Of a stretch of DNA of 32,000 nt, positions 1 through 20,021 are shown piece by piece (the first letter of the stretch is position 1; every line of letters begins with the position of its first letter). The notes beneath the pieces were generated by a model. The model was not told the DNA's origin. It was given only the letters and a program-made list of their open reading frames with translations, and did no database searches. The position numbers and the translations under genes were made by a program. The stretch is from Capsulimonadales bacterium (GTDB lineage Bacteria > Armatimonadota > Armatimonadia > Armatimonadales > Armatimonadaceae), in the NCBI GenBank assembly GCA_033762295.1, contig JANRLW010000115.1, positions 1-32,000 of the forward strand. Direction: 5' to 3'.

Positions 1-489
1 TTCGAGAACGCTCTGCGACTGATCCTGCGCTCGGCGCAGTACCCGCTGACCTACACGCGCGAAAGCGGCGTCTATGTGGTCAAGATCCGCGAGATCGCGA
101 CGACGACCAACGCGGCTCCTCCCCCGGCCCCGCCGGAGGACGACCGCAACGACCGGGTGTACCAGCCTCTGGAGACGATCCAGCTGGTGTACGTGGACCC
201 GGCGGACCTGTCGGCGGCGATCGGCCCGATCACCTTCATCCAGTATAACGTCCGTGGTCAGGGCATGGGTGGTGGCATGATGGGCGGTATGGGCGGTGGA
301 ATGATGGGTGGTATGGGTGGCATGATGGGCGGCATGGGTGGCGGAATGATGGGTGGTATGGGCGGCATGATGGGCGGCATGGGCGGTATGGGCGGCGGAA
401 TGATGGGTGGTATGGGCGGTGGAATGATGGGCGGAGGCTTCGGAGGCGGTATGATGGGCGGAGGCTTCGGAGGCGGACGCGGATTTTAA
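1..489 (+). CDS. Partial (5' end outside window) secretin-N/STN-like domain protein ending in a ~75-aa Gly/Met-rich low-complexity tail
   Basis: Frame 1 is open from base 1 (FENALRLILRSAQYPLTYTRESGVYVVKIRE...) and runs into track ORF 76..489. 'ALRLIL..L.Y..E.GVY.V' resembles the short secretin/TonB N-terminal (STN) motif. 'ETIQLVYVDPADLSAAI' resembles a secretin-N beta-alpha unit. TAA at 487-489 is followed by a hairpin. The family call is from motif memory only. Confidence 0.55.
   Translation, partial: FENALRLILRSAQYPLTYTRESGVYVVKIREIATTTNAAPPPAPPEDDRNDRVYQPLETIQLVYVDPADLSAAIGPITFIQYNVRGQGMGGGMMGGMGGGMMGGMGGMMGGMGGGMMGGMGGMMGGMGGMGGGMMGGMGGGMMGGGFGGGMMGGGFGGGRGF
256..486 (+). repeat. Degenerate in-frame tandem repeat encoding (M/G)n: GQGMGGGMMGGMGGGMMGGMGGMMGG...GGGFGGGMMGGGFGGGRGF
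   Basis: Direct reading shows reiterated atgggYggY/atgatgggYggY units with synonymous variation, ending in two GGGFGGG units just before the stop codon. Confidence 0.9.
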
Positions 490-1513: not shown

Positions 1514-2671
1514 TCAGGGTTCCTGACCGGTTGCACTTCTCCAGGCATTGAGGCTGTCATACTCCGTCGCACCCCAGATCGCATGGAAAAACGGTGTCAG
1601 ATAGCAGTTGTCCCGGAAGAGCAGGTTTGGCTGCAGGGCGAGGTCGGGCACTTTGATCATTGTCCGATTGCCCTGAGGAATGAACAGGTTTCTCCGAATG
1701 GTGACATTGACATTCGTCATTCCGTCCTTTACCTGCAGGACGCCAAACGGTCCCTCCGCCGTCGGAAGCGGGTTGTTGCCGAAGATGAAGGTGTTCCCCT
1801 CGACCAGAAGACCGTCCATACCTCCGCCAAAGGTAAACCCGCCGCCATTGCTTATTCCGTCGTTCACGCTGAGATTGTAACGGACTTTGTTGTTTCGCAT
1901 CGGACGGGCCGAGTAAAATTCGTAGACGAGGAAGCCACTGCCAAAGTTATCGTGGCTGTAATTATACTCCATGACGCAGTTGACGCAGCCGCCATCGAGA
2001 TCGAATCCACCGCCGTCGATGGTCATCGACCGGTTTCGATAACTCTCATTGAACCGGATCACGACGTTTTTGGATTCCCAGGCCCAGATACCGACCGGCC
2101 CGCCCCCCTTGTGATCGTTCTTCGCCCCGTTCTCGAAGGCGACACTACATTCGATCATTCCGTTCTCCACATCCGAGAGAACGATTCCGTTGCCGCTGTT
2201 ATTGCCTTTGTTGGCGAAACCGGTGTTTCGATAGGCGCAGCATCCGCCGACGTAGACGTTCTCATGGCTGTAGCCGGGGATGAGCGACTCCGGAAAATCC
2301 GGACCGTAGTAGGAGTTAAAACTTCCGTAGGTGTAAATCCCGCCGTCGCCATTGTCGTGGGCGACGACATTGGTAATCCGAACGTTTTTGAAACCGGTCT
2401 TGATCGCGACATAGTTCTCGTAATCGTAGACATACGCGCCGATCGAGACGCCGTTGACACCGAAACCGCTCACTTCGACGTTGTGGATTTGAACCGTATC
2501 CAGCTTGTTGCCGACGATCGGAATATCGGAAAAGAAGGAGATTCCGTCCTTTAGATTGCCATTATCGCGTCCGACCCCTACCGCATTTAGGTTCTCGATG
2601 CGGATTCCGGCGGTGTCGTAGGCGAAGCGCCTGGGCGAAAACCGGGAAAACGATCGCCGCAAGTATGGCAA
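1514..2671 (-). CDS. Right-handed parallel beta-helix repeat protein (pectate-lyase-fold body); probably the body of a pilin-like (prepilin-leader) protein, see 2562..2741
   Basis: The 385-aa track ORF starts at a TTG that is probably not the true start. It has reiterated beta-helix rungs (NVRITNVVAHDNGDGGIY, NGIVLSDVENGMIECSVAFENG, NVVIRFNESYRN, VNCVMEYNYSHDN, NNKVRYNLSVNDG, LLVEGNTFIFG). This frame is closed by a stop at 2681-2683. Confidence 0.75.
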   Translation of the reverse strand: MPYLRRSFSRFSPRRFAYDTAGIRIENLNAVGVGRDNGNLKDGISFFSDIPIVGNKLDTVQIHNVEVSGFGVNGVSIGAYVYDYENYVAIKTGFKNVRITNVVAHDNGDGGIYTYGSFNSYYGPDFPESLIPGYSHENVYVGGCCAYRNTGFANKGNNSGNGIVLSDVENGMIECSVAFENGAKNDHKGGGPVGIWAWESKNVVIRFNESYRNRSMTIDGGGFDLDGGCVNCVMEYNYSHDNFGSGFLVYEFYSARPMRNNKVRYNLSVNDGISNGGGFTFGGGMDGLLVEGNTFIFGNNPLPTAEGPFGVLQVKDGMTNVNVTIRRNLFIPQGNRTMIKVPDLALQPNLLFRDNCYLTPFFHAIWGATEYDSLNAWRSATGQEP

Positions 2672-2741
2672 TAATAGCGATTACTATTAAAAGTTCTATC
2701 AGCGTAAAGCCGAACCGCACGGATACACCGCTCCTACGCAT
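2562..2741 (-). CDS. 59-aa ORF encoding a prepilin-type N-terminal cleavage/methylation leader, out of frame with the downstream beta-helix ORF (likely its displaced N-terminus)
   Basis: My own translation from the ATG at 2741 gives MRRSGVSVRFGFTLIELLIVIAIIAILAAIVFPVFAQALRLRHRRNPHREPKCGRGRTR*. 'GFTLIELLIVIAIIAILAAI' is the classic type IV pilin-like G/FTLIE leader plus hydrophobic helix. GAAAGGG lies 10-16 nt upstream. The ORF is absent from the track only because it is under 60 aa. Confidence 0.6.
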   Translation of the reverse strand: MRRSGVSVRFGFTLIELLIVIAIIAILAAIVFPVFAQALRLRHRRNPHREPKCGRGRTR

Positions 2742-2938
2742 AGTTGGAACGCCCTTTCAACAGGAGATACCGGGATCCCCAGCGGAACCCGGTCGTTATA
2801 ACAGATACGCCCAATCCGAGTTTCGGCGAGATATGTTTGGCTGCTTAGGAAGACAAACCGAAGGAAGAAGAAATTTATTGTTCTTGACGACTTACCATAA
2901 GGTTTACGGGAAGGGCGTGAGCCTCGTGCGTAGGTGCG

Positions 2939-4738
2939 TTAGCCGCCGTGCGGAACGTCCACCGGACGCTCACGGTGCGTCATCACCCAGTCGCCGTTCT
3001 CCGCCAGAGACTCCTGCCCCAGTTCCGTCAGCAGTTGTCGCGCCTCCTCGTACTCGCCGGCGGCAAGACGCCGATGCAAACGATGTTCCGCCAGCACGAA
3101 AAGATGGCCCATCCGTTCATACTGCCTGGCATGCTCGGACAGAGCCCGTTTGTCGACGTAGGTATGCAGCGCCCCGGCCAGGGCGGCGAGCAGGAAAACG
3201 GCGATAATCAGCAGTTTGTGGGCCAGGGGATACCCGTGCATCCAATCCTGAACCGGCGACGGAATCAGTTCCGCCAGCGCCGTGAGCAGAGCGACCACCG
3301 GGCTGGTGGCGATCAGCACCTGAATCGCCTCCTCCAGACGTTCCAGACGGCTCTCCTCCCGATGCGTCGCCCGCTCGAAATACCGCGCCTGATCCGCCAC
3401 CCAGTGTTTCTGAACGTACCCGAGATGCTCCGCCGTTCCGAGCGGCGCGGTTCCCTCAGCGCCGGCATTCTCCGAAAGGTTCCGGATCGCGATCCGTATC
3501 CAGTCCAGTTCCCCCCGCTGCTTCCGCAGGTAGTTGTCGGCGACCGAGGTCCCGATTCCGGCAAGCCTCCAAAAAAACTCCACGCGCAACCCTTCGGCCA
3601 GGGCACGATAGTCCTGATACCGATCCTGCCACGCGCCCCGACTGACCGTCGAATACCAGAGAACCCAGGCGACACCGATCATACCCGGAAAGATCAAGCC
3701 CAGGCGAGCGTTATCCGGTGCTAGTTTCGCCGACAGTTCGAACGCGACGCCCGCCAGAAAGACGATGCCTATCAGGAGTTTCAGCATGCCAAAGGTGCGT
3801 TGCTGATACTCCTGCGCCAGCGTATCGGTCAGGGCGTAAGCCTGGCGAAGCGTCCGCAAGGCCGGGTCCAGAGTGGCGGCCGTTTCGTCGGCGATCAGAT
3901 ACCCGGCATTCCTCCGGAGTTTCGCCGACAGATCGGGGTCCGCCTCCGCCCGCAAGACATTCCGGTTGAACTCCTCCATATTGGCGAAGATGCGATCGAA
4001 CGTCGCCTGGGACTCCGGAATGGCCTCGCCCTCTTCCTCGTCCGTTACCTTCTTTCCGGGATAGTACCGGTTCAGGGTAAACGGCTCCCCTTTCAGTTCA
4101 GGATGGTGACGCCGTGGGGTGACGATATGGTAGACCGGCCCGGTCTCCGGCGGATCGAGCGTGCTGCCGGAAGCGGATTCGGTTTCGAGCAGGGTCGCCA
4201 GCAAACGTTCCGGTATCCCCTCATGCCGGTATTCCAGAATCGTGCCGGTGCCGCCCCCCTCGCCACGGGAAACGCCGTTCCACAGCGCGATCAGGATCTG
4301 GCAGTGACGGACCACGTACGCTCCGACCAGGGCATACTGCTCCGCGCGACACGCCGCGTCACAGACGTTCCCGGCGTCATTTCCGGGCAGATACGGCAGT
4401 TCGAGGGAACGATCGGCCCGCGCCAGTAGCGACCGGAACTCCTCCAGGGACTCGGAAGTCGAAAAATCCTTCTCGTATTCGGCCTGAACCATCGGCAAAG
4501 GCACAATCAACCGGACCCCACGCGCCAGAGCGATCCGGGCGACCAGGCGATCGGCTCCCTCGGCCAGCGGCGAAAGAATATGCAACGGGGTATGGGGATA
4601 TGCGGCTTCCAGTTCGGCGAAAAGGGCGGCGACCTGCGCTTCCAGTTTCGCGGTATCCTCGGGGCGCAGGTCGCGATGTCCGGTGATCCCGACCACCAGC
4701 GGTAAGGGACCATACTTTTTGTCGCCACGGTTTTGCAT
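2939..4738 (-). CDS. SLOG (LOG/DprA-like Rossmannoid) domain fused to two SLATT-like 2TM modules (4 predicted TM helices)
   Basis: I place the start at the ATG at 4738 (MQNRGDKKYG..., AAGGA about 10 nt upstream). The track start at 4960 would overlap the upstream gene with Arg/Pro-rich junk. N-terminal motifs are LVVGITGHRD, SPLAEGADRLVARIAL (GxD as in DprA/YpsA) and GEGGGTGTILEY (compare the LOG PGGxGTxxE motif). Hydrophobic pairs are FGMLKLLIGIVFLAGVAFELS / LGLIFPGMIGVAWVLWYSTV followed by WQDRYQDYRALAEGL, and IQVLIATSPVVALLTALAELI / KLLIIAVFLLAALAGALHTYV preceded by HWVADQARYFERA (DUF4231/SLATT-like). Confidence 0.7.
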   Translation of the reverse strand: MQNRGDKKYGPLPLVVGITGHRDLRPEDTAKLEAQVAALFAELEAAYPHTPLHILSPLAEGADRLVARIALARGVRLIVPLPMVQAEYEKDFSTSESLEEFRSLLARADRSLELPYLPGNDAGNVCDAACRAEQYALVGAYVVRHCQILIALWNGVSRGEGGGTGTILEYRHEGIPERLLATLLETESASGSTLDPPETGPVYHIVTPRRHHPELKGEPFTLNRYYPGKKVTDEEEGEAIPESQATFDRIFANMEEFNRNVLRAEADPDLSAKLRRNAGYLIADETAATLDPALRTLRQAYALTDTLAQEYQQRTFGMLKLLIGIVFLAGVAFELSAKLAPDNARLGLIFPGMIGVAWVLWYSTVSRGAWQDRYQDYRALAEGLRVEFFWRLAGIGTSVADNYLRKQRGELDWIRIAIRNLSENAGAEGTAPLGTAEHLGYVQKHWVADQARYFERATHREESRLERLEEAIQVLIATSPVVALLTALAELIPSPVQDWMHGYPLAHKLLIIAVFLLAALAGALHTYVDKRALSEHARQYERMGHLFVLAEHRLHRRLAAGEYEEARQLLTELGQESLAENGDWVMTHRERPVDVPHGG

Positions 4739-4769
4739 TTGTCTCGTCCTTTTCCTGTTGTTTCCCGAC

Positions 4770-6509
4770 TTAACGTCGGTAGACCTGGAACCCGGCCAGA
4801 GCAAGCGACTCGGGCAGTTCCCGAATGGTCTGCCGGTTGAACTCCCGGCCCTCCTCCGGCAGTTCCGGCCAGGGCACCAGGTTGGGATTGGTCTTCCGGT
4901 CCGGGTCGCGCGGTCCGAAAGTCCATCCCGCGGCCCGGCGCTCCGCCATCCAGCGCTCATGTTCCATCTGCGCCATCCGCTCGATCTCCTCGGGTGTGAA
5001 GGCGAAGGAGGACGCTTCCCAGTCGGTCAGGGGCGCGATATCGCAACCGATGGACCGCAGTTTGATGCCGATATCGTCCGCCTGGCGGCGATTGGACTCT
5101 TTCCACTCCTCCGAAAGGAACTCCCACGGCACGAGGGTCGGGTTCTGTTGTCCGGTCACGCCCGCCTTGTGCTGGTCGCGCAGGTAACGGGCATGAATGG
5201 CGTGTGCCAGCGCTTCATTAGCCCCGCCGAGAACGAATTCCGGCTGGCAGATCCGCTGCAAGAGGCCGATCGGATGCAGTTTCTCGAACCCGTGTCCGCT
5301 CGCCTGCGTCGATTCCAAAAGCGCTCCGAGGCCGGAATCCTGCGTCATCCGAAGCAGAATCGGTACGGGATGCTGGCGGAACCGGTGCAGGAGCGCCAAT
5401 CCGGCCGAAAGGCTCGCGCCGTCGTTCTCCAGACAGATATAGACGGCGGTGACGGTCACCCGTTTTGCTTCATCGTAGAGAAACGCGCCTCGATGAAACT
5501 CGGCGGAAGGCACGTCCATCACCAGGATTTCCGGATCGCACAGCGAGGCGAACCCCGAATCGTCGGGCCGAAGTTCCTCCAGGAGATCGCCCGTCCGGTC
5601 GATGACCGTGATCCGGAACCGTTCCGTTCCGCGACGGTGCTCGCGCCAGAGCCGAACGGAATGCAAAACGATATTTCGCGCCAATCGGCCTCCGCCGACC
5701 ACCAGGAGATGCGGCGTCCCTTCGACCCGTTCAAACGGCGGGTGCGCGGCCAACATCGCGCGCGCCCCGAGGTCGAAGACGTTGAAAAACTGGAGTCGGA
5801 ACGCGCCGACCGAAGAAATCTCCCAGCGCCGGAGCAAATACCACAGATCGGGATCGACGATATGCGCGGAGCAGGTCAGGGGGTTTCCCTTCCTGTTTTC
5901 GACCAGTTCGCGGGCGCGGGTCGCCACTTCCGCGTTTTTTCCGTCCTCGCCGCAGACGGCAATCAGGTAGCGGGCGCTGCCGACGTTGGCCTTGCGCAGC
6001 ATCTCCGGTTCGGCCGCATCTCCGACCAGCACGATCGCCCCGAGTTCCCGGCAGGCTTCCGACAGAACGTTGGTCTCGTTCTCCTCGATCGCCACGACCG
6101 TCAGGCCACGTTCCCGGAACGCTCGCGTCAGCAGATAGCCCTTCTCCCCCAGTCCGCAGACGACCACATGGTTGCGCAGACGGCGGAGACGCAGTCGCTG
6201 GAGCGAGTCGCTGCGGACAAAGTAGGCGGCAATCGCGGCGGTCGAGACGCCGAGGGTGCCGATCCCGACGAACATCAGGAAGACGGCGACGATCCGCCCG
6301 CCGATCGTCTTCGGGAAAATGTCTCCGTAGCCGATCGTGGTCATCGTTACCAGCGCCCACCAGAGGCTGTCCCCGTACGTCTGCACGGTTTCGTTTCGAC
6401 CGTGTTCGAAGTGGTAGAAGCCGGCGGCGGACAGCAGAGCGATGACAATCACCAGGCTGATGATGGTCAGAAGATAGGTACGCAGGGAGCCTCGACCGGA
6501 TTCATTCAT
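4770..6509 (-). CDS. Two-TM K+ channel (TIGYGD filter) with tandem Rossmann/TrkA-N (RCK-like) modules and two C-terminal RyR (ryanodine-receptor) repeats
   Basis: 579-aa ORF. TM1 is LLTIISLVIVIALLSAAGFY, the pore is SLWWALVTMTTIGYGDIFP and TM2 is IVAVFLMFVGIGTLGVSTAAIAAYF. There is a GxGxxG (VVVCGLGEKGYLL) and a second LLVVGGGRLARNIV. The RyR-type repeats are ALAHAIHARYLRDQ...NPTLVPWEFLSEEWKESNRRQADDI and MAQMEHERWMAERRAAGWTFGPRDPDRKTNPNLVPWPELPEEGREFNRQTI. The stop lies 31 nt before the next start. Confidence 0.85.
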   Translation of the reverse strand: MNESGRGSLRTYLLTIISLVIVIALLSAAGFYHFEHGRNETVQTYGDSLWWALVTMTTIGYGDIFPKTIGGRIVAVFLMFVGIGTLGVSTAAIAAYFVRSDSLQRLRLRRLRNHVVVCGLGEKGYLLTRAFRERGLTVVAIEENETNVLSEACRELGAIVLVGDAAEPEMLRKANVGSARYLIAVCGEDGKNAEVATRARELVENRKGNPLTCSAHIVDPDLWYLLRRWEISSVGAFRLQFFNVFDLGARAMLAAHPPFERVEGTPHLLVVGGGRLARNIVLHSVRLWREHRRGTERFRITVIDRTGDLLEELRPDDSGFASLCDPEILVMDVPSAEFHRGAFLYDEAKRVTVTAVYICLENDGASLSAGLALLHRFRQHPVPILLRMTQDSGLGALLESTQASGHGFEKLHPIGLLQRICQPEFVLGGANEALAHAIHARYLRDQHKAGVTGQQNPTLVPWEFLSEEWKESNRRQADDIGIKLRSIGCDIAPLTDWEASSFAFTPEEIERMAQMEHERWMAERRAAGWTFGPRDPDRKTNPNLVPWPELPEEGREFNRQTIRELPESLALAGFQVYRR

Positions 6510-6545
6510 TGAAAGGCATCATGGCGAATTTTCTCGATCGGTTCT

Positions 6546-6848
6546 TCACGGGCCGGGGGAAATGCCGTTCTTTTCCAGGCGATAGCCGAGAGCGGTGATC
6601 ATCCGTAACGTCTCCATCGCGGTGTTCCGATCGTACTCCTTTTCGATCTCGGACAGTTCTTCGTACGGGATCAGGCAGGGATGCTCCTTCCGCGTATCGT
6701 CCCGTTTCGGACCGTATCGCCAGCCCTCGGACAGCCGCTGCCTGGCCCACACCTCGTGCGTGTTCCGGGCGAGCAGTTCGGTCAGTTCGACCACTTCCGG
6801 CGTCAGAGTGACCCGGGACGTATCCAGGGGTTCGGGTGTATATTCCAT
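6546..6848 (-). CDS. Stand-alone single RyR-domain protein (100 aa)
   Basis: LARNTHEVWARQRLSEGWRYGPKRDDTRKEHPCLIPYEELSEIEKEYDRNTAMETL matches the RyR-repeat pattern (HE.W....GW.YG..RD...K.HP.L.PY.EL.E.EK..DR) and the second repeat of the adjacent channel. It ends 36 nt upstream of the channel start. Confidence 0.8.
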   Translation of the reverse strand: MEYTPEPLDTSRVTLTPEVVELTELLARNTHEVWARQRLSEGWRYGPKRDDTRKEHPCLIPYEELSEIEKEYDRNTAMETLRMITALGYRLEKNGISPGP

Positions 6849-6921
6849 CTATCGACTCGCTTTGCCTTTTTCCTCATATCGGCATTCCGGAAGCGGACCC
6901 GAAGGTATGAGACGGTATCCG

Positions 6922-8613
6922 TCATCCTTTAAATCGCAGGTCGATATGGGTTCCGTCACAGAACGGCTTGTTTTGCGACCCGCCGCAACGACAGAGGGTG
7001 ACCCGATTACGGATTTCCGCCGGTTTGCCATCGGCGCGCTCGACCGTCAATCCGCCCATTGCCCAGAGCGGACCGTTGCCGATCACCGAGATCTCCTGCG
7101 GCAGGTGCGGTTCGATTGTCTCGCCGGACGGCAGCAGTTCGTAGGTCAGGGCGCCGCTCGGGCAGCGTTCGATCATCGCGATCACCTGCGATCGCACGGC
7201 GATGTCGTCGGTCTTTTCGGCCATCTCCCAGACATCGGTCACTTTATTTTCGCAGAAGGTGGCGAACGCGCAGAGGGTCCGGTCATGCTTCACAGTCAAC
7301 TGCGTGCCCGGATACGGCACGGCGCGATCGGCACGCGGCGCAGGATCGGCGGTCTCGGTTCCGTCGAAGCGCTCTGCGACATGGCTGCCATCGCAGTACG
7401 GTTTGGCATCCGACTTGCCGCAACGGCAGAGGGCGCAGAACTCGCCGGTATCCACCGGACCCTCGCGCCGCCAGGTAAGCGGTTCGCCCTGTTCAGAAAC
7501 GATCGCGCTCTTGCGCCGGATCGGGATTCCGCCCTCCACAATGTAGGGGCCGTTCGGACGAACGGCGATCCGGGGCGATTTTCGCCGTCCGTAGCCGGGC
7601 GGGACATACTCGAATGTCAGGCCGACCGTCGTTTCTCCGTCCCCCGAGGGCATCCGCACCAGTTCCAGAGCGCGGTATCGTACCTCGTACATCAGGCCGA
7701 CGGCCACCGCCATTCGTCCCGGTTCGCCGTTGAAGCTGCGGTGCATCTCCCGGAGCATCACGGAGTAAGCGCCGTTGAAATCCTCCAGGGCGATCCGTTG
7801 CGGACTGTCGACCGCGAAATCGGCGGTTCGGCCGTTCGCGCGTACCGGGAAAACGGCCTCCCAATCGACCGGGAACGGTTCGCCGGTCGGCCCGGATTCC
7901 GGCGTGTCCCCCTCCTGATAGCTGCGCTCGACCAGCAGTTCGTGGAATCGGAAATAGTGCGACAACTCCTGCCGTTCCGGATCGAACATCGTGCGGTCGC
8001 CGTCCCAGATCGAATGATGGTCCATCCCCTCGCCCTGCTCGACGATCTCTTTCAGGGCGGCGAGAGCCGAGTTCAGGTCGAAGACCGGCAGCACCTTGCC
8101 GCTGCCGTAGTAATGGAAGTTTTTGTCGGTCAGCTGTCGGGCAGGGTTCCCCGTAAAGACGCTCTCCTCGCCCAGTTCGTCACAGAGACGGATCAACCCC
8201 TGTTCGAGCGCCTCGTAAAACTGGCCGATGGTTTCGTAATTATCGTCCTCCGGCGGGGCGTCGGCGGGCGCGGGCATCTCAATGCGCAGAACCGTCTCGA
8301 CGAACTCCTTCGAAAACCGTCCGACCGGGACCTGAAACGCCCGATTACTGTGGGTCATGTAGCAGGGATAGGTCGGAATAAATGCCGGATGATCGAGGCT
8401 GGGCGTGCCGCCGATGGCATTGAGAACGTTGGCTGCCAGCGTCATGTGCAGCATCTCCTCGATGGCGACGCTGAGCAGCACCTTCGCCGCCTCGCGATTC
8501 CGGTCGGGATGCAGAGAATACAGCGCGGTCAGGTACGGCGGGAGGGTCGAATGCTCCAGTTCGATCGCCCACTGGAGATGGGTCCGCAGGTCCTCGATGT
8601 TCCGAATAGCCAT
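6922..8613 (-). CDS. Ferritin-like (di-iron ExxH) domain protein fused to an Fe-S region with two CDGSH motifs
   Basis: N-terminal WAIELEHSTLPPYLTALYSL and AIEEMLHMTLAANVLNAIGG give two ExxH motifs. C-terminal CRCGKSDAKPYCDGSH and CRCGGSQNKPFCDGTH are canonical CDGSH. Between them lies a Cys-rich segment (TLCAFATFCENK...ERCPSGA). I prefer the start at the ATG at 8613 (MAIRNIEDL, GGTGGA upstream); the in-frame alternative at 8724 cannot be excluded. Confidence 0.75.
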   Translation of the reverse strand: MAIRNIEDLRTHLQWAIELEHSTLPPYLTALYSLHPDRNREAAKVLLSVAIEEMLHMTLAANVLNAIGGTPSLDHPAFIPTYPCYMTHSNRAFQVPVGRFSKEFVETVLRIEMPAPADAPPEDDNYETIGQFYEALEQGLIRLCDELGEESVFTGNPARQLTDKNFHYYGSGKVLPVFDLNSALAALKEIVEQGEGMDHHSIWDGDRTMFDPERQELSHYFRFHELLVERSYQEGDTPESGPTGEPFPVDWEAVFPVRANGRTADFAVDSPQRIALEDFNGAYSVMLREMHRSFNGEPGRMAVAVGLMYEVRYRALELVRMPSGDGETTVGLTFEYVPPGYGRRKSPRIAVRPNGPYIVEGGIPIRRKSAIVSEQGEPLTWRREGPVDTGEFCALCRCGKSDAKPYCDGSHVAERFDGTETADPAPRADRAVPYPGTQLTVKHDRTLCAFATFCENKVTDVWEMAEKTDDIAVRSQVIAMIERCPSGALTYELLPSGETIEPHLPQEISVIGNGPLWAMGGLTVERADGKPAEIRNRVTLCRCGGSQNKPFCDGTHIDLRFKG

Positions 8614-8775
8614 CTGGTTTTTCCACCGGCGGCAGGCCGGGTATCCGTCGGTAAGAATTCGTGACGTCCCTATTTTATCGTGATCCGGGGGCGGGTAATC
8701 GGGCGTTTGCGGCGGGTCTTTCAAAAGTCAGGGAGCGGTCGGGCAACCGTTCTCCTCCGTACGACGATCTTCCCG

Positions 8776-8802
8776 CCTCCGCCGCCACAAAAGCGGCGGA
8801 GG
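8776..8802 (-). other. GC-rich stem-loop after the AGE-like gene (possible terminator or RNA-stability element; no U-tract)
   Basis: Perfect 10-bp stem cctccgccgc (8776-8785) / gcggcggagg (8793-8802) with a 7-nt loop, about 20 nt downstream of the stop at 8822. Confidence 0.4.
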
Positions 8803-8821
8803 CAGGATACGGACGATCCGT

Positions 8822-10708
8822 TTACACGGGGACGATACGGACTTTGACCTTCATCTCCGGCTTGATCTGCTGCAGTTTGACGCCACCGGCGCGGCGGCGT
8901 TCGAGCAGGTCGGTCGGGTGCAGGGACGCGACATCCGGCAGGGTGACGGTCAGCGCGTCGGCGTCGAAGTTCGTATATTCCTCGCCGTTGATCCACACCG
9001 CGTCCAGCTTGACGCTGCCCGGCGGCAGGATGTCCGGAGAGACGCGCAGGATATTGTCCTTGAACGCGCCCGGCTGCGGCTTGAAGTAGAAGTCCATCGG
9101 CTGCTTCATCACCAGCAGGTTGCTGTAAACGGCGGCAAGGTAGCAGAGTTCCGTCGAGTGGTACGCGCCCATCGAGTGGCTACCCTTGTCGCGTTCGTTG
9201 CCGAGCAGGTACGGCAGACCGTTCGCCAGGACGTTGAAGTAGACCGCGCCGGAATCGGTATCGAGGAACCAGGCGTTGTAGAACGCCGCCGACTCCTCGG
9301 CCAGCTTCTTGTAGGTCGGGTTCTCCAGGCATCCGGCCAGGATGAAGTAGGCGAGAATCCCCTGCTCCTGCTGCCACCAGGCCTTGCGGTCGTGGAACGC
9401 CAGCCGGTGGAACGTCTCTCCCTCGCCCAGTTGTCGCTCCAGCACGTCGTACCAGCCGCCCCGCTGCTTGTCCATCGCGACGGCCGGCATGGTATCGGCC
9501 AGTTTGGTGGCCAGGGCGACATACTTCTCCTTCGGCAGCGCCGAGTTCATCCGCATCAGGTTCCAGGCGATCTTCAGGTCATGACCGCCGACCGCGCGAT
9601 CCTGCTGCCAGCCCCAGGTCTTGTCCGGGCTCCAGTCCTCGTAGAACTTCTCCTGTACGAACGGGCTACCGTCCTTCGCGGGGAACTTCTCCTCGATGAG
9701 GTCGAAGACATACTCCAGGAAGTCCAGATACTTCTGCTCGCCGGTCGCCAGGTAGAGGTTGATCAGGTAGGCCGGAGCATGGTCACCGACCGAGTTCCAG
9801 TTCTTGCGAGCGCAGTTGTGGGCAAGCGATTCCGCCTTCGGGTCGAACGTATCGGTCGTGATGTGCGAGTAGTAGCCGGCCTGCGCGGACTCATCCTTGA
9901 AATACCGGTTGAACAGATTGATCGTCTTCTCGGTATCGGCCAGGATGCTGGGATCGCCGGTGATACGGTAGGTCTGGATCGGGCCGGCGAGAGCGTAGAT
10001 CTGCTCGTACGCCGGAATCGCGCCCCAGTCGTCGCCGAAGAGCGAGCCCAGCACTTCATGGACGCCATCCGGTTGCATATCGAGGGCGTGCAGCCAGTAG
10101 ACGACGCCTTCGTTCTCCTTGTCGCGCTTGCAGATATTGCGCTGCAGGTACTTGGTGCCCTTCTCGGCCGCTTCCAGGAAGCGGTCTTCGCCGGTCATCA
10201 GGTAGGCGGTCGCGAACCCGTAGACGGTGCGGGAGATGGTGTCGGTCTCCTGCAGGGTGGTTCCGAGCTTGCTGCCGTCCAGGTAAAGCTGGGTGCGATA
10301 CTTGGTGTAGTCGATCGGGCCGCCCTCGAACTGCGAGTTGATATAGAAGTCGGCCAGTTCGCGCACCTGGTTGATCCACCAGTCCTGCTTCTCGAATACG
10401 AAATCCCCGGCCTTCTTGCCCGCGAAGACAAGATGCTTCACTTCGAACTTGTAATCGCCGCCTTCCGGGTAGTAAATGCCGTAGGCGAAGACGTAGTTCC
10501 CCACGGACAGCGCCTCGCTCAACTGCCCCATGGCGTCCTGGTAGTTCTCGCCCAGATTGCGGACATATTCGCCGAAGGTGGAGGAGGTCAGTTTGGCCTC
10601 AAATTCCTTATCGCCGGGCGTCTTCAGTCGGAAGGTACCCTGGCTCAGGTCCGCCGCCGTCACATAACCGGCGATGGTATCGGAAAACGTAAAGTCGATC
10701 TGATTCAT
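8822..10708 (-). CDS. AGE-superfamily ((alpha/alpha)6-barrel, N-acylglucosamine/cellobiose 2-epimerase-like) protein with extra N- and C-terminal domains
   Basis: 628-aa ORF with AAGGGA upstream of the ATG at 10708. The core has segments reminiscent of AGE-family repeats (TVYGFATAYLMTGEDRFLEAAEKG, AYEQIYALAGP, GGHDLKIAWNLMR, RGGWYDV, AWWQQEQGILAYFILAG). The superfamily call is moderate and the specific activity is unknown. Confidence 0.55.
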   Translation of the reverse strand: MNQIDFTFSDTIAGYVTAADLSQGTFRLKTPGDKEFEAKLTSSTFGEYVRNLGENYQDAMGQLSEALSVGNYVFAYGIYYPEGGDYKFEVKHLVFAGKKAGDFVFEKQDWWINQVRELADFYINSQFEGGPIDYTKYRTQLYLDGSKLGTTLQETDTISRTVYGFATAYLMTGEDRFLEAAEKGTKYLQRNICKRDKENEGVVYWLHALDMQPDGVHEVLGSLFGDDWGAIPAYEQIYALAGPIQTYRITGDPSILADTEKTINLFNRYFKDESAQAGYYSHITTDTFDPKAESLAHNCARKNWNSVGDHAPAYLINLYLATGEQKYLDFLEYVFDLIEEKFPAKDGSPFVQEKFYEDWSPDKTWGWQQDRAVGGHDLKIAWNLMRMNSALPKEKYVALATKLADTMPAVAMDKQRGGWYDVLERQLGEGETFHRLAFHDRKAWWQQEQGILAYFILAGCLENPTYKKLAEESAAFYNAWFLDTDSGAVYFNVLANGLPYLLGNERDKGSHSMGAYHSTELCYLAAVYSNLLVMKQPMDFYFKPQPGAFKDNILRVSPDILPPGSVKLDAVWINGEEYTNFDADALTVTLPDVASLHPTDLLERRRAGGVKLQQIKPEMKVKVRIVPV

Positions 10709-14101: not shown

Positions 14102-14995
14102 CTATTCGGCGGTTTTCTTTCGCGATTTTTCCGGTCCGACGTAGATGAAGTCGGTCATTTCGAAGACATTCACATTGCGGGCGGTATCATTCCGGATGAT
14201 CCAGCGGCGCGGATACCAGCCCGGCTTCGGGTAGACCGCCGGCTGCGGAATGAGGTCCGTTTCAAACTGATCGGGTTCCACCAGACCGGTCGGGCTGTCA
14301 AACGCCTTGCGGACGTTGGTACCGACGACCATCCCGTTCATATGCGCGTTGTAGTATAGAAAGTTCTGCCCGATGGTGATCCGTGCGGGTTGCCCGACCG
14401 GCTTGTTCGGAATATCATAGCTGACGCCGACCCCCGGAACGACCGTGTCGGGTACCCCACGGGTGACCGTCGGCGGCACCTCCTCGGCTACGGGATACTG
14501 CAGTTCGTTGACGAATCCGGGACTGGGCTGCTGCGGCGGATTCAGCAAAAAAACGGCATGAAAGTGTTCCGGTTCTTGCTCGGGACGATACTGGTCGATC
14601 GGATGGCCGGTGAAGTAAAAGAGGGCCATCTGCTTGAATGCGGTAACGGACGCCTCCGGCGGCAACGGAATAAAGTAGACATTCGGTCCTTCATCCGTAA
14701 TCGCTGTCGGCGGCTGGTTATCCCGCCCGGTTCGGTAGAGTTCGAACCCGACCGACTGGGGAACGCCACGATCCAGCGTCACGAAACTGCGTCCGAGCCG
14801 CGATGGCCCGCTCGGGCCATTGAAGATCGGCGGTTCGGGACCGAAGAAGGTTCCGGTCAGCCCGGACTGTGCGCTACCGAGGTCGCCGCTTCCGCTGCCG
14901 CACCCGGCGACCACGCCCGCCAGACCGACGCCGACAAAGGTGCAGGCGATCAACGTTCGGAAGACCCGGTTTTTGAATGTTTTTTGCTTGGTCAT
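14102..14995 (-). CDS. Uncharacterised lipoprotein, family A copy 1 (paralog of 16201..17073)
   Basis: Signal peptide plus lipobox (FVGVGLAGVVAGC). It shares blocks with the paralog: GRSFVTLDRGVP / GRTFVTLNNGIP, YFIPLPPEA / FYLPLPPEA, GVGVSYD / GVGVAYE, GQNFLYY / GQNYFYF, PAVYPKPGWYP / PVVYPKPGYYP, VFEMTDF / VFKLTDF. Confidence 0.7.
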   Translation of the reverse strand: MTKQKTFKNRVFRTLIACTFVGVGLAGVVAGCGSGSGDLGSAQSGLTGTFFGPEPPIFNGPSGPSRLGRSFVTLDRGVPQSVGFELYRTGRDNQPPTAITDEGPNVYFIPLPPEASVTAFKQMALFYFTGHPIDQYRPEQEPEHFHAVFLLNPPQQPSPGFVNELQYPVAEEVPPTVTRGVPDTVVPGVGVSYDIPNKPVGQPARITIGQNFLYYNAHMNGMVVGTNVRKAFDSPTGLVEPDQFETDLIPQPAVYPKPGWYPRRWIIRNDTARNVNVFEMTDFIYVGPEKSRKKTAE

Positions 14996-15064
14996 CTTTT
15001 CCTTACTTCTCTCCGGAGACGGCGTTGCGAGCGTCCGCCGCTCGCAACGCCATCCGAACTCGCA

Positions 15065-16126
15065 TTACACAAAGGCGACATAGCCACCGAACGGTAACCC
15101 CGAGACCACGGCTCCCCTGGGTTGGCCGGTGTTCCCGTCAAACCGCAGGATCGATCCGCCGCCCAGGGCGCTGACGATGTCGCCTGCCAGCACGCTTCCG
15201 TAGCGATCCGGCGTGGTAAAACTGCCGACATACAGGTCGCCATCCGGGCCGTAGGTTATGCCGACCGGGAACGGACAGGTGGCGAAGGTGCCGACCTCGC
15301 TTCCGCTGTCCAGGTCATAGCGCACGACTCGCCCGGTGAAGTGTTCGACGACCAGCAGGTCGCCGCTCGGATGAAAAGCCATCGTGAACGGGATTTTGAG
15401 ATCCCGGGCCGTATATTTCACCAACCGTCCCGTCTCCCCGTTGAGGCGCGAGATGAAGTCGGTTTCGTTCGTCAGCGGTGAATACTGGAGCGTTGAGGAG
15501 ACATAAAAGTCCCGATCCCGCGGGTTGACGATGATTCCGAACGGCGCATAAGCGGGGGCGAAGGTTCCGATGCGGTCCCCGGTACGGGCATCGTACCGCT
15601 CGATCGAATCCGTGCCCTTGCCCACATTGCCGTTCAGCGAGGGCGCATTGACGACATAAAGAAAGCCATCCGGGCCAATCACGCCGCTGTGCGGGGTGAT
15701 CAACCCCCGCGGTGGCGTCGGCAGGGAGCGCAGAAATGCCCCGGAGCCTTTGTCGTACATGAAGGCGGCATCGCCGCCCGGACTGAAGACGAAGACATTG
15801 TTATTGCTTCCGGCAACGATCCCTGCGGTCGAAATCCCCACACCTCGCGACACGGCGAAGGTGCCCTGATTCCGAAACGTTCCCGGATCGTACGATTCCA
15901 CAGTTCCGAAAAGAAAAGTGGAAACCAGCATTCGACTGGGCGGCGCGGGCACCCGGTACAGTGACCCACTGCGGCTCCCGCACCCGGTCAGCAGCGACCC
16001 GCCGAGACTCAGGGCGGCCGCCCCACCCAGTGTGTCTCTCAAAAAGGCGCGACGGGTGGTTCGGCGGGCATCTTCCGATGCCTGCCCCGTCATCGCATCT
16101 CCAACTTCGCGGAGAATCGAACTCAT
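15065..16126 (-). CDS. Tat-signal lipoprotein, NHL/SMP-30-like beta-propeller, family B copy 1 (paralog of 17096..18220)
   Basis: Twin-arginine motif plus lipobox (TRRAFLRDTLGGAAALSLGGSLLTGC). Repeated blade-like units (GPDGFLYVVNAPSLNG, DFYVSS, PSGDLLVVEH, GPDGDLYVGS). A strong RBS (AAAGGGGAGAAAAACAAA) precedes the ATG at 16126. Confidence 0.7.
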   Translation of the reverse strand: MSSILREVGDAMTGQASEDARRTTRRAFLRDTLGGAAALSLGGSLLTGCGSRSGSLYRVPAPPSRMLVSTFLFGTVESYDPGTFRNQGTFAVSRGVGISTAGIVAGSNNNVFVFSPGGDAAFMYDKGSGAFLRSLPTPPRGLITPHSGVIGPDGFLYVVNAPSLNGNVGKGTDSIERYDARTGDRIGTFAPAYAPFGIIVNPRDRDFYVSSTLQYSPLTNETDFISRLNGETGRLVKYTARDLKIPFTMAFHPSGDLLVVEHFTGRVVRYDLDSGSEVGTFATCPFPVGITYGPDGDLYVGSFTTPDRYGSVLAGDIVSALGGGSILRFDGNTGQPRGAVVSGLPFGGYVAFV

Positions 16127-16200
16127 TTTGTTTTTCTCCCCTTTGTATGCGCCCGTTGGCGTAAACCCATCCTGCGCACCATCATTATGCTTTTCCGTTC

Positions 16201-17073
16201 CTAAAGGAAGCGTCCCGCCGGAACGAAATCCGTCAGTTTGAAAACGTGGTAGCTTTTATCCGAATCCCAGGTGACCGTGCTTCGAGTCGGATAGTACCCC
16301 GGTTTCGGGTAGACGACCGGTTGCGACATCGGCAGAACGATCGTCCGTTCCTCCTTCAAGAACCCGTAGGTGGCCAGCATCCCGACACCGTTCAGATGCC
16401 CCTTGAAGTAAAAATAGTTCTGACCGAAACTATTCCATCGTGGCTGGACGTGCGCCGAGGAAGGGTCCTCGTAGGCGACCCCGACGCCCCCTTCCGCCAG
16501 TTCGATATTGCCGGGGATTCCGCTTCCGATCAGGTACCCGGCCGGAATCTCCTCGGAGTTCGTTACCGGAGCCGTCTCATCGCGCAGTCCTTCGGAGGCG
16601 GCTCCGGGGGGAGCGATACAGAACGCCGCCAGGATGTGAGGAATGTCGGCGATCCCGACCGGGCGACGGCCATTCGCCCAGTTCAGCAACACCATATACT
16701 TGAACGGGGTCGTGTTGGCCTCGGGGGGCAGCGGCAGATAGAACGTATCCTCGGTATCGAACTTCGGATACGGAAGGGTTTTCAGCGCACGATCCGGCAG
16801 TTCCCAGCCAAGTTCGGTCGGAATGCCGTTGTTCAGCGTGACGAACGTTCGTCCGAGATCGACGGCGATGTCGCCGACCGGCTGCAGATTGACCGCACTG
16901 ACAAAACGCCCGGTACGTCGAACCGACAGAGTAGGATCGTCCTTTCCGCCGCCGCATCCGGTCGCAAAAACGCCCGAGGCTCCGAGCGCCGCACTGCCAA
17001 CGCCATAACGGACGATCAGATCCAGCATTTCCCGCCGACTGTAGAAGCGGTTTTCGGTTGCTATTCGTTCCAT
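16201..17073 (-). CDS. Uncharacterised lipoprotein, family A copy 2
   Basis: I place the start at the ATG at 17073 (MERIATENRFYSRREMLDL...GVFATGC, an RR-containing signal plus lipobox), with GAAAGAGAG upstream and 22 nt after the upstream stop. The track start at 17232 would overlap the upstream gene. Paralogy blocks are listed under 14102..14995. Confidence 0.7.
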   Translation of the reverse strand: MERIATENRFYSRREMLDLIVRYGVGSAALGASGVFATGCGGGKDDPTLSVRRTGRFVSAVNLQPVGDIAVDLGRTFVTLNNGIPTELGWELPDRALKTLPYPKFDTEDTFYLPLPPEANTTPFKYMVLLNWANGRRPVGIADIPHILAAFCIAPPGAASEGLRDETAPVTNSEEIPAGYLIGSGIPGNIELAEGGVGVAYEDPSSAHVQPRWNSFGQNYFYFKGHLNGVGMLATYGFLKEERTIVLPMSQPVVYPKPGYYPTRSTVTWDSDKSYHVFKLTDFVPAGRFL

Positions 17074-17095
17074 AACTCTCTTTCTCGTTCCGTCC

Positions 17096-18220
17096 TCAGG
17101 CGAACGCCAGGTAGCCGGAGAAAACGAGTTTCTCTGCCAGCGCGCCGAAAGGTTTGCCGTTGGCGCCGTTGTAGCGCAGAATACGACCTTTGTTTTTCGC
17201 CGTGTCGAGATCGTTGTTGAAAAGCGCCTCAATGCCTTTCTGGTCCGTAAAACTGGTCATATAGGCGTTTCGATCCGGGCCGAACTGAATATCGATGCAG
17301 AAGTCGGCATTGGCAAAGGCATCGACGATCTTCCCGGTACGCAGATCGAACAGGGCGACACGGCTGTAAAAGTGCTCGATCACCATCAGGTAGCCGTCCG
17401 GGTGGAAGTTGACGTTGAACGGCACCTTGACATCCCGGGCGACATAACCCGTGAACCGTCCGGCGGAGTCGAACCGGGCGACATAGTCGGACCCGAGCGC
17501 GAACGGGAAGTAAGCAAGCGAGGCCGTTACATAAAGGTTACCGTCCGGCCCCCAGGAGATGCCGAACGGCGCGCGAAGTTCCGGCGTGTCATTCCCGTCG
17601 ATAAATCGGCGGATATGTTCGCCATCGGGGGTGTAGATCTCGACGGTGTCCGGGCCGATCCCGAGCTGGTTGTTGAGGGAAGGCGCATTCACGACGTACA
17701 GGTTGCCGTCGGGACCGACCGAGCCGCAGTGAGGCGTCTGGGTAATCGGCAGTTTCACCTCACGGGTAATCGCGCCGGTCACTCCGTCGCAGATGAAGAA
17801 ACGGTTGCTGCCGGGGCTGAAGGCGTACACCTGTCCCTGCGGACCGACGCGTACCCCGGCAATGGTCGTACCCCGGTCGACCTGGCGGAAAAACGTGCCG
17901 AGGGACGCCCCCGTCCGGGCGTCCAGCGCCTCGATCGTCCCCTCGATAAAGGTGGAGACGAGCACCCGGGTTCCCGCCGGCATCGCCCGTCCCTTGTCCA
18001 CCGACTTCGAGGAGCCGCATCCGGCCAGCAACGTTGCGCCCGACGCGCCGAGCGCCAGCGTGCTCGCCGCGGCCCCCTCCAGAAACTCCCGCCGGGTCCA
18101 CGCTCCCTCCGGACGGGCGACGCTCGCCGGTTGAGGCAGTCGCCCGGTCTGACGCCGGATCATCCAGGACCGCAGTATCGACAGATACCGCATCTTCTCC
18201 GCTTCGCTTATGCCCTTCAT
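17096..18220 (-). CDS. Tat-signal lipoprotein, NHL/SMP-30-like beta-propeller, family B copy 2
   Basis: TRREFLEGAAASTLALGASGATLLAGC. It is colinear with copy 1 (VLVSTFIEGTIE / MLVSTFLFGTVE, GPDGNLYVVNAPSLNN / GPDGFLYVVNAPSLNG, FHPDGYLMVIEHF / FHPSGDLLVVEHF, C-terminal GYLAFA / GYVAFV). The exact start is uncertain (three in-frame Met in the first 20 codons). Confidence 0.7.
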   Translation of the reverse strand: MKGISEAEKMRYLSILRSWMIRRQTGRLPQPASVARPEGAWTRREFLEGAAASTLALGASGATLLAGCGSSKSVDKGRAMPAGTRVLVSTFIEGTIEALDARTGASLGTFFRQVDRGTTIAGVRVGPQGQVYAFSPGSNRFFICDGVTGAITREVKLPITQTPHCGSVGPDGNLYVVNAPSLNNQLGIGPDTVEIYTPDGEHIRRFIDGNDTPELRAPFGISWGPDGNLYVTASLAYFPFALGSDYVARFDSAGRFTGYVARDVKVPFNVNFHPDGYLMVIEHFYSRVALFDLRTGKIVDAFANADFCIDIQFGPDRNAYMTSFTDQKGIEALFNNDLDTAKNKGRILRYNGANGKPFGALAEKLVFSGYLAFA

Positions 18221-18238
18221 GACTTTGACCTTGCGCTC

Positions 18239-19626: not shown

Positions 19627-20019
19627 TCAGGCCAGCGAACCGTCGGGATACTGCACCATCCCGGCGAAATGGATCGCGATCTTGCCGTCCCGCAGGACCC
19701 AGCTGTCGGCGAAACGCATCTGGGACTCGGTTCCGCCCGCTGTCATCGTAATCTGCTCGGTGATCATCAGGGTCTCCGGGTCCTCGGTCTCGCCCCAGAA
19801 GACGATCTCGGTTTCCAGTCCCTCGATCCCCAGGATGCCCTGCATATGCTCTTTCAGGCCCTCGCGGCCCTTGTAGATGACCGGCTTTTTCAGGAAGCTG
19901 CTGATCAGGAGGGCGTCGTCCGTGTACTGATCGAGCAGGGCGTCGATATTCTTATCGAGGATGAACTGAATGTGCTCGCGATACATGCGACCCAGTTTGG
20001 TGTCCGGAACGTTCTGCAT
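19627..20019 (-). CDS. NTF2-superfamily (SnoaL-like) small protein
   Basis: I place the start at the ATG at 20019 (MQNVPDTKLGRMYREHIQFILDKNIDALLDQYTDDALL...), 2 nt after the GMC stop and with GGGAGA upstream. The 194-aa upstream extension in the track is Arg/Gly/Pro-rich and overlaps the GMC gene. The size (130 aa) and the alpha-then-beta pattern fit NTF2-like proteins. Confidence 0.6.
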   Translation of the reverse strand: MQNVPDTKLGRMYREHIQFILDKNIDALLDQYTDDALLISSFLKKPVIYKGREGLKEHMQGILGIEGLETEIVFWGETEDPETLMITEQITMTAGGTESQMRFADSWVLRDGKIAIHFAGMVQYPDGSLA

Positions 20020-20021
20020 GG

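Follow-up and report, generated by a model that had tools for sequence, protein, structure and literature searches.

What could a bacterium use three adjacent genes for that unite ryanodine-receptor (RyR) repeats, a K+ channel and a SLOG–SLATT membrane protein? The question is raised by a gene cassette in a stretch of 32,000 nucleotides (hereafter the window; positions 1 to 32,000 of contig JANRLW010000115.1, GenBank assembly GCA_033762295.1) from a Capsulimonadales bacterium of the Armatimonadota phylum. A first-pass annotation, made from the sequence itself, regarded the cassette as a candidate ligand-gated membrane-conductance or conflict system. We find this interpretation partly supported, both by the family context of the genes (TIR, STAND NTPase, WD40 and caspase proteins) and by the binding of cyclic ADP-ribose (cADPR) isomers by RyR domains. 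Our analysis suggests that the cassette probably provides the sensors and effectors of a TIR-dependent nucleotide signalling system of Thoeris-like type, and that in this genome, where no TIR gene is adjacent, the two parts are uncoupled. This reading is carried by the observed domain architectures of the cassette, the conserved linkage of its genes, the linkage of its relatives to TIR genes and the conservation of residues.

Gene layout and domain architecture

The genes for the RyR-only protein (gene 1), the RyR-tailed K+ channel (gene 2) and the SLOG–SLATT protein (gene 3) follow one another in the same direction, separated by 36 nucleotides (nt; genes 1 and 2) and 31 nt (genes 2 and 3), a layout that was described at first pass and agrees with the list of open reading frames (ORFs; Table 1). 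Purine-rich stretches resembling ribosome-binding sites precede the starts of genes 1 and 3, and the GC content of the cassette (0.60–0.63) matches that of its flanks. Gene 3 has an alternative, longer ORF up to position 4960 that overlaps the channel gene; the ATG at 4738 is favoured as its start because the homolog consensus begins just ahead of GPLPLV (~13 residues ahead of GPLPL). Its product is identical to the NCBI protein SFU56_20420. A consensus scan of positions 2400–9000 for promoters and terminators yielded none above shuffle expectation, and the operon boundaries are therefore drawn from gene spacing; a hairpin (−19.9 kcal/mol) with no U-tract lies in the 267-nt gap downstream of gene 3. 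None of the three ORFs is interrupted, and no family-invariant residue has been lost.

Table 1. Coordinates of the cassette genes, of their domains and of a distant candidate gene in the window (aa, amino acids; TM, transmembrane; AF2, AlphaFold2)
Feature	Position	Strand	Size or evidence
Gene 1 (RyR-only)	6848->6546	minus	100 aa
Gene 1: single R12-type RyR repeat	6546..6848	minus	Pfam RyR 1.6e-36, whole 91-position model
Gene 2 (K+ channel)	6509->4770	minus	579 aa
Gene 2: pore module, residues 1-105 (TM1, pore helix, TTIGYGD filter, TM2)	6195..6509	minus	Ion_trans_2 5.5e-19
Gene 2: tandem RCK (Rossmann-type) domains, ~residues 110-255 and 262-420	5250..6182	minus	TrkA_N, AF2, Foldseek
Gene 2: C-terminal tandem RyR repeats, R12-like pair, ~residues 423-579	4773..5243	minus	Pfam RyR 5.8e-17
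Gene 3 (SLOG-SLATT)	4738->2939	minus	599 aa from ATG at 4738
Gene 3: cytoplasmic SLOG domain, ~residues 12-230 (GITGHRD/EGADR/GGGTGT motifs)	4049..4705	minus	AF2, Foldseek, homolog Pfam
Gene 3: first 2TM unit, SLATT_3/DUF4231-like, ~residues 290-400	3539..3871	minus	Weak Pfam/NCBIfam matches + homologs
Gene 3: second 2TM unit, SLATT_1-like, ~residues 436-590 (C-terminal motif ENGDW..HRERP)	2969..3433	minus	Homolog matches
STAND NTPase-HTH_77-TPR gene, C-terminal 637 aa	30086..32000	minus	N-terminus beyond window end

The domain calls made at first pass hold for all three proteins by Pfam, homologs, AF2 models and Foldseek, and the motifs lie where they had been placed (TTIGYGD at residue 57 of the channel; GITGHRD at 17, GADRLVARIAL at 61 and GGGTGTILE at 161 of gene 3). 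The profile matches then expected were obtained for gene 1 (RyR) and gene 2 (Ion_trans_2, TrkA_N and RyR), whereas gene 3 alone stayed below threshold and its SLOG and SLATT parts were recovered through homologs and structure.

The RyR-only protein scores 124.9 bits with the Pfam RyR model (PF02026; gathering cut-off 27.4), matches the ‘putative ryanodine receptor’ 3NRT of B. thetaiotaomicron in a PDB profile search (E 6.6e-37) and strongly matches Repeat1-2 of animal RyRs, aligning well with Repeat 1 of RyR2; R12 structures of RyR1-3 are among the PDB matches of the RyR domains in the cassette. RyR-only is expected to form a dimer. Its sequence is 58–72% identical across phyla, while its partners are less conserved (37–52%). 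Lopez Rivera et al. described gp78 of Mycobacterium phage DyoEdafos (RyDEP, PF02026) as a glycosidase that cleaves 2'/3'cADPR to linear ADP-ribose (ADPR), with ligand residues H75, W78, H100 and D117 and the catalytic dyad H75/D117; the other phage RyR homologs, most of those tested, are nanomolar sponges (PMC13232231). H31, W34, H56 and D73 of RyR-only align with the four RyDEP residues (sequence taken from MN234187.1) and all four are kept; the H/W/H/D set is also complete in all six RyR-only genes that adjoin SLOG–SLATT genes in other phyla. RyR-only thus has the residues of a RyDEP-type glycosidase (the dyad plus W78 and H100), and we regard it, from its sequence, as a candidate binder or glycosidase for cADPR-type signals.

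The channel has all the parts of an RCK-gated K+ channel, i.e. a 2TM pore, a T-x-G-Y-G-D filter and cytoplasmic RCK domains. Its hydrophobic helices lie at residues 13–31 and 73–91, its profile matches MthK (2.6e-25) and KcsA, and TrkA_N is found by Pfam at residues 115–230 (1.7e-18). Two alpha/beta modules are visible in the AF2 model (predicted local distance difference test, pLDDT, 86.2; predicted template modelling score, pTM, 0.74), for which the best Foldseek matches are GsuK structures (4gx1/4gx5, E 2e-13), then Slo2.2, MthK, Slo1 and TrkA. Both the modules and the tandem RCK domains of GsuK agree with the two Rossmann modules called at first pass. The tail is matched by Pfam RyR in two stretches (62.2 bits against the cut-off of 27.4) and by profile to R12 repeat 2 of RyR3/RyR2 (8.5e-29). 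At the RyDEP-equivalent positions, repeat 1 reads H/Y/N/N and repeat 2 reads H/W/N/N, the latter pattern being that of RyR2 repeat 2; with Asn at both the H100 and D117 positions, neither repeat has the glycosidase residue set. H439, Y442, N473, H517, W520, N541 and N558 are invariant in 30 family members, and the tail may, to judge from its residues, be a ligand sensor. The complete H/W/H/D set in RyR-only and the Asn residues in the channel repeats would lead one to expect a free protein that is catalytic or binds with high affinity, and a sensor on the channel that is not catalytic.

The SLOG–SLATT protein gives sub-threshold matches on its own (DUF4231 E=0.006 at residues 303–387, YAcAr 0.04, NCBIfam SLATT_3 0.001 at residues 300–385). 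Among 39 homologs, however, Pfam finds SLATT_3 in 19, DUF4231 in 15, SLATT_1 in 11, YAcAr in 10 and DNA_processg_A in 2. SLATT_3 and DUF4231 map to TM1-2, with scores of up to 28.9 bits and several homologs above the Pfam cut-offs, and SLATT_1 maps to TM3-4 (~residues 445–600). The SLATT 2TM hairpin is therefore recognized at the level of the family, with gene 3 itself below the cut-offs. The AF2 model (pLDDT 90.6, and >90 over most of the SLOG domain; pTM 0.90) contains long helices at residues 292–339 and 349–368, and further hydrophobic helices lie at 474–492 and 510–528. An hhalign comparison of the first and second 2TM units found only a 9-column motif at 16% probability (YxDxRALxE after each second helix), so that the reading as two SLATT units rests on the Pfam matches of homologs, internal duplication not being demonstrated by hhalign. 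A PDB sequence-profile search with the family alignment returned chance coiled-coil matches only.

The N-terminal domain has the Rossmann-like SLOG superfamily fold with its Gly-rich nucleotide-binding loops, and its Foldseek matches are YpsA (2nx2, E 8e-5), DprA, ShosA (8zva), the molybdenum cofactor (Moco) carrier protein and TM1055. The GHR, GxD and GGT motifs are invariant, as are residues G20, H21, R22, G61, D63, G162, G163 and T164 in the 39 homologs; E580, N581, W584, H588, R589, R591 and P596 near the C-terminus are likewise invariant in the family. We regard the domain as a candidate nucleotide-ligand sensor. TRPM was also considered as a close structural relative of gene 3 and rejected (Foldseek prob <0.3); of the parallel to TRPM channels drawn at first pass, a resemblance at superfamily level stands. 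Three homologs (L168:9918-11972, L169:9850-11955 and L171:9903-11951; loci of relatives bear L numbers) have an insert of 85–100 aa between TM1 and TM2, which is His/Ser-rich in the L168 and L169 sequences that we inspected. If SLOG is cytoplasmic, this loop would be extracytoplasmic.

Relatives and their linkage to TIR genes

We compared 14 independent loci that encode an RyR-tailed channel. SLOG–SLATT directly follows the channel in 12 of them, with a 4-nt overlap in some (L164 and L167), and one further locus (L172) has a truncated copy; the first-pass view of the genes as a unit is borne out by this adjacency. A TIR gene is present in 12 of the 14 loci; in the TIR-less ones (L162/L163 and L164/L165), a caspase and STAND NTPases are seen instead, one NTPase being truncated where the contig ends. 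RyR-only genes occur in six. Two gene orders recur: TIR-WD40, RyR-only, channel, SLOG–SLATT in L001, L167 and L173, and TIR_2+DUF8082, Tll0287/HAMP, channel, SLOG–SLATT in L168, L169 and L171, as well as in L172 with its truncated SLOG–SLATT; RyR-only lies farther upstream in two loci of the latter type. STAND NTPase, WD40/TPR and caspase genes neighbour many relatives. These counts define a conserved core of channel and SLOG–SLATT, with TIR as the usual third partner and RyR-only as a frequent accessory. The neighbourhood conservation that was proposed for testing at first pass thus applies to the channel/SLOG–SLATT pair and not to the full three-gene set.

Several of these loci have features of their own. 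The Tll0287-like+HAMP protein is always ahead of the channel in TIR_2+DUF8082-type loci. In L162 (2224-2937) and L164 (2220-2933), a 237-aa protein with no Pfam match occupies the RyR-only position directly upstream of the channel; both loci are flanked by two STAND NTPases, L164 also by a caspase-PEGA gene, and neither has a recognizable TIR. In L172 (379-4260 and 9808-10838), a RyR-only/TIR/TIR/HAMP/channel set adjoins contractile-injection-system genes (sheath, gp19-like tube and Pvc16_N), and SLOG–SLATT has kept only its SLOG domain, a remnant being readable in a different frame.

SLOG–SLATT proteins are far more widespread than this arrangement. The family comprises 11,232 clusters of 50% identity at E<=1e-3 and 3,678 at E<=1e-30, with relatives in at least 526 GTDB species of many phyla. 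In a sample of 80 species loci, searched by tblastn and hidden Markov models (HMMs), only ~10 have an RyR or channel gene beside SLOG–SLATT (in Armatimonadota, Acidobacteriota, Firmicutes and one deltaproteobacterium) and ~85% have neither. The commonest neighbour is a TIR-domain protein (TIR-WD40, TIR-kinase, TIR-TIR-AAA_35 or TIR-TM): TIR genes occur in the flanks (<=10 kb) of 35 of the 80 loci, at a density of 12.5/100 kb within 1.5 kb of SLOG–SLATT compared with 0.8/100 kb at 5–10 kb; over the anchor genes as a whole, the density at 5–10 kb is 0.8–2.4/100 kb. The reciprocal sample, 80 metagenome loci with close RyR-only homologs (54–72% identity), contains TIR genes in 25 loci, and in 9 of the 22 that have >=2 kb on both sides, with the same local enrichment as around SLOG–SLATT; SLOG–SLATT itself is found in 8 and RCK-RyR proteins in 3. 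A second kind of output protein with an RyR sensor was seen in L085 (6890-9226), L131 (9980-12265) and L139 (9992-12250), where a fusion protein of ~760 aa combines an N-terminal RyR with TPR-S and an adenylate/guanylate cyclase; its gene adjoins a TIR gene in L131 and L139.

The first-pass annotation had left the source of the ligand unnamed, whether encoded elsewhere or supplied by an invader. The relatives point to a TIR enzyme, which, going by them, is almost certainly the source. It had also given the RyR modules, which are indeed present, no specific role; they are best read as a cADPR-type ligand module.

The same comparisons bear on the role of RyR-only. One alternative is that it acts as a converter of gcADPR into linear ADPR, which would then be the true SLOG ligand (as for TRPM2) in a two-step relay. 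Consistent with this, RyDEP yields linear ADPR from 2'/3'cADPR, the catalytic H/D dyad is kept in RyR-only and not in the channel repeats, and RyR-only is more conserved across phyla than its partners. However, RyR-only is missing from 8 of the 14 channel loci and from most SLOG–SLATT loci, which indicates that it is dispensable for the core; moreover, ADPR is an abundant NADase by-product and would make a poor specific signal, and most tested phage homologs are sponges. We therefore consider such a relay highly improbable.

Proposed mechanism and points against it

In the signalling system that we favour, a TIR enzyme would use nicotinamide adenine dinucleotide (NAD+) to make an ADPR-derived signal, its class being that of cADPR, 2'cADPR or 3'cADPR. 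The TIR gene is adjacent in relatives and would here lie elsewhere, possibly as the gene cut off at the right end of the window. The signal would (i) bind the R12-like RyR tail of a tetrameric GsuK-type channel and alter its gating through the RCK ring, so that K+ flow collapses or shifts the membrane potential; (ii) bind, as the same or a related ligand, to SLOG, upon which the four-TM (2 x SLATT) protein would oligomerize or open and permeabilize the membrane, as family predictions suggest; and (iii) be bound or hydrolysed by RyR-only, which would set a threshold or serve as an off-switch against accidental firing. The SLOG and RyR domains of the cassette, with their conserved ligand-type residues, are candidates for the part that senses an ADPR-derived signal in Thoeris effectors. 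In its most specific form, the proposal is that bacterial K+ channels are gated via R12-type RyR domains by TIR-made cADPR-class nucleotides and have as partners a SLOG-gated SLATT pore and a host RyDEP-like protein that buffers or destroys the signal; we put this forward tentatively, as possible rather than probable.

Several observations weigh against a TIR-dependent system. Pfam scans of the ORFs and an HMM built from the neighbours of homologs (E<=10) find no TIR in the 32-kb window, as the first-pass annotation had stated for the adjacent genes. The cassette is surrounded by housekeeping genes, no mobile-element or defence gene being seen among them, and PADLOC run on the three cassette proteins gives no match; the checks for a defence island and for a PADLOC hit that were proposed at first pass thus came out negative in a window that is syntenic with an Abditibacteriota chromosome. 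At the level of the proteins, the SLOG domain of gene 3 is YpsA/YAcAr-like, and ThsA is absent from its top 50 structural matches. Asn replaces two RyDEP ligand residues out of four in the channel repeats (H100->N, D117->N), which leaves their binding of a cADPR-type ligand unassured. Because the RCK domains of GsuK bind NAD+/ADP, the channel could also be gated by ordinary metabolites. Phage homologs that bear the conserved dyad proved to be sponges, not enzymes, which makes catalysis by RyR-only unpredictable. In the only published test, E. coli was not protected against phages by two operons of TIR and ‘SLOG and 4TM’ (from Streptomyces sp. GKU 895 and Ca. Nitrospira nitrosa COMA1), which may or may not belong to this family (10.64898/2025.12.03.692087).

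A rival to an immune role is a housekeeping or physiological module, in which K+ flux and permeability are tuned to NAD+/ADPR-type metabolites of the cell itself, in relation to redox state, starvation or development. RyR-only would then buffer the ligand, and TIR-linked relatives would be one specialization of a general ion-homeostasis device. The position of the cassette among metabolic genes, syntenic with the Abditibacteriota chromosome, points to vertical inheritance and away from a mobile defence island, and L170 and L173 are likewise among housekeeping genes. The lack of an adjacent TIR gene, the negative PADLOC result, the negative heterologous SLOG–4TM defence test and the regulation of the closest structural relative, GsuK, by NAD+/ADP and Ca2+ also fit. 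On the other hand, TIR is present in 12 of the 14 channel loci, many with such hallmarks of conflict systems as STAND NTPases, WD40/TPR sensors and caspases; TIR enrichment falls off sharply with distance; and the sole characterized non-animal RyR-domain proteins act on immune signals. A purely physiological module is, in our judgement, rather unlikely.

Genomic surroundings and the missing TIR gene

The window is syntenic with L169, a locus of the complete Abditibacteriota chromosome AP024152.1. The two share a GlgX-like isoamylase (63% identity) and a GlcNAc-2-epimerase-like gene (75%), after which L169 continues with Bestrophin-like, RyR-only, TIR_2+DUF8082, HAMP, channel and SLOG–SLATT genes. 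In the window, a ferritin-like/CDGSH gene stands ahead of RyR-only, and the interval from RyR-only to the channel is empty. A recent horizontal insertion of the cassette was considered and rejected on account of this synteny and of a GC content equal to that of the flanks. The ferritin-like/CDGSH gene (6922-8724, minus strand) takes the place of the Abditibacteriota Bestrophin-like gene and ends 73 nt upstream of RyR-only; its 600-aa product combines Ferritin-like, divergent 4Fe-4S mono-cluster and two CDGSH domains, and it may conceivably be co-transcribed with the cassette.

A candidate for the missing signal generator lies at the right end of the window (Table 1). The product of this truncated gene is 51% identical to residues 366–835 of the TIR_2+AAA_22+HTH_77+TPR protein of L166, which directly follows the channel and SLOG–SLATT there. 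A database search returned no exact full-length counterpart; the best match, P0241 (68% identity, 983 aa), carries TIR domains, while other homologs (45–50%) carry cyclase, SARP or kinase N-termini. From these likenesses, the gene may encode a TIR-STAND-TPR signal generator, with its N-terminal domain outside the window. SnoaL genes and an amine oxidase come directly after the TIR-STAND gene in L166; their window counterparts are 17–22 kb from the cassette, in a cluster of SnoaL_2, GMC oxidoreductase, alpha/beta hydrolase, amine oxidase and double-SnoaL genes (19627-24934, minus strand). The location of these L166-type genes at 19.6–24.9 kb suggests that a rearrangement parted the generator from its effectors.

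Such a history also allows for an orphaned remnant, i.e. a cassette that lost its TIR (and HAMP) partner through deletion or rearrangement and is inert or decaying. In syntenic L169, TIR and HAMP genes separate RyR-only from the channel and are missing from the window, the SLOG–SLATT of L172, truncated to its SLOG domain, offers a precedent for decay, and the distance of the SnoaL and amine oxidase genes from the cassette implies rearrangement. Yet the three ORFs are intact with all family-invariant residues kept, their spacing is operon-like (36 and 31 nt) and their GC content is that of the surroundings. In addition, TIR enzymes can act in trans because their signal diffuses, and the same contig may still carry the candidate TIR-STAND-TPR gene. 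We regard an inert remnant as decidedly unlikely.

Two further regions of the window were noted. A duplicated two-gene unit with no Pfam matches (14102-19525, minus strand) consists of two lipoprotein-like paralogs (297 aa and 343 aa) and, as their respective partners, two beta-propeller-like paralogs (353 aa or 374 aa) with a twin-arginine translocation (Tat) signal, and a 428-aa putative outer-membrane protein lies alongside. A Gly/Met-rich, low-complexity ORF with GGMMGGMGG repeats (76-489, plus strand; 137 aa) has no Pfam match and is possibly no real gene.

Implications

The locus and its relatives show the RyR domain as a part of bacterial K+ channels and, in other loci, of TPR-cyclase proteins; they also show it standing free inside TIR-linked operons, beside a very large uncharacterized SLOG–SLATT family. 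The cassette therefore offers a small, tractable system for asking whether an R12 domain gates a cation channel via cADPR-type ligands, a long-open question for animal RyRs, and could reveal how signalling immune systems set thresholds through built-in signal buffers. If the proposal is true in its most specific form, the cassette would be (i) the first defence or signalling operon with its own RyR-domain off-switch and (ii) a prokaryotic counterpart, possibly an evolutionary source, of the regulation of ryanodine receptors by cADPR and of TRPM2 by ADPR in animals. Even if merely a TIR-less remnant, it would still mark a new, widespread set of candidate Thoeris-type effectors.

Comparison with known systems

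TIR-SLOG, TIR-SLATT and TIR-ion-channel systems are already known as kinds. Yirmiya et al. define 29 putative Thoeris types, among them type I with the SIR2-SLOG effector ThsA, whose SLOG senses 3'cADPR, type III with the SLOG effector ThsD, type VII with the SLATT effector ThsH and canonical cADPR as signal, and type X with the verified ion-channel effector ThsK; their Tables S1 and S2 also contain an untyped putative effector, ‘SLOG and 4TM’ or ‘4TM SLOG’ (10.64898/2025.12.03.692087). Our cassette is like Thoeris in its SLOG, SLATT and ion-channel domain types, in its membrane-acting logic and in that its relatives adjoin TIR genes. It differs in that (i) no TIR gene is adjacent to it in the window and PADLOC models do not match; (ii) two membrane effectors and an RyR regulator share one operon, whereas Thoeris has one effector; (iii) the TIR partners of relatives are mostly large TIR-WD40, TIR-STAND-TPR or TIR-kinase proteins, in contrast to the small ThsB; and (iv) its SLOG is YpsA/YAcAr-like. 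The ‘SLOG and 4TM’ effector resembles gene 3 in its SLOG domain, four TM helices and TIR neighbours, a likeness of described architecture and not of compared effector sequences. The TIRs published for 4TM SLOG and for types III, VII and X match those of the relatives' loci weakly (E ~1e-3).

‘RyR’ is absent from the text and tables of Yirmiya et al. (10.64898/2025.12.03.692087) and from Kaur et al. 2020. A literature search, which did not cover Burroughs et al. 2015, returned no host-encoded RyR proteins in such loci, no RyR-tailed RCK K+ channels, no obligate channel/SLOG–SLATT pairing and no RyR-TPR-S-cyclase fusions beside TIR genes.

Among channels, gene 2 shares with GsuK and MthK the 2TM pore, the canonical filter and the cytoplasmic RCK domains, GsuK having two tandem RCKs per subunit and binding NAD+/ADP; it differs from both in its extra tandem RyR tail and in its genomic coupling to SLOG–SLATT and, in relatives, to TIR. 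In animals, cADPR and ADPR are proposed ligands of RyR and TRPM2, respectively. Like animal RyRs, gene 2 joins RyR repeats to a cation channel, with the H/W/N/N pattern of RyR2 repeat 2 in its own repeat 2, and like TRPM2, gene 3 joins a SLOG-type domain to a membrane permeability device. The scaffolds, however, are unrelated (a 2TM K+ channel and SLATT compared with 6TM RyR and TRPM), and an evolutionary link between the cassette and animal RyR or TRPM2 is one that we only infer.

The characterized non-animal counterparts of RyR-only come from phages. RyR Tad (Pectobacterium phage CB1 gp68) is a sponge that binds 3'cADPR at 43 nM and also 2'cADPR and cADPR (10.64898/2026.06.04.730250). The RyDEP and RyR Tad preprints (2026) both note the likeness to animal RyR R12, and neither describes host proteins. 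RyR-only shares with both the PF02026 domain, the small size and an expected dimer, and it keeps the H/W/H/D residues; it is far nearer to B. thetaiotaomicron 3NRT and animal R12 than to RyDEP. In contrast to the phage proteins, it is host-encoded and stands first in an operon of candidate effectors, with TIR alongside in relatives, and it would regulate its own system rather than counter a defence.

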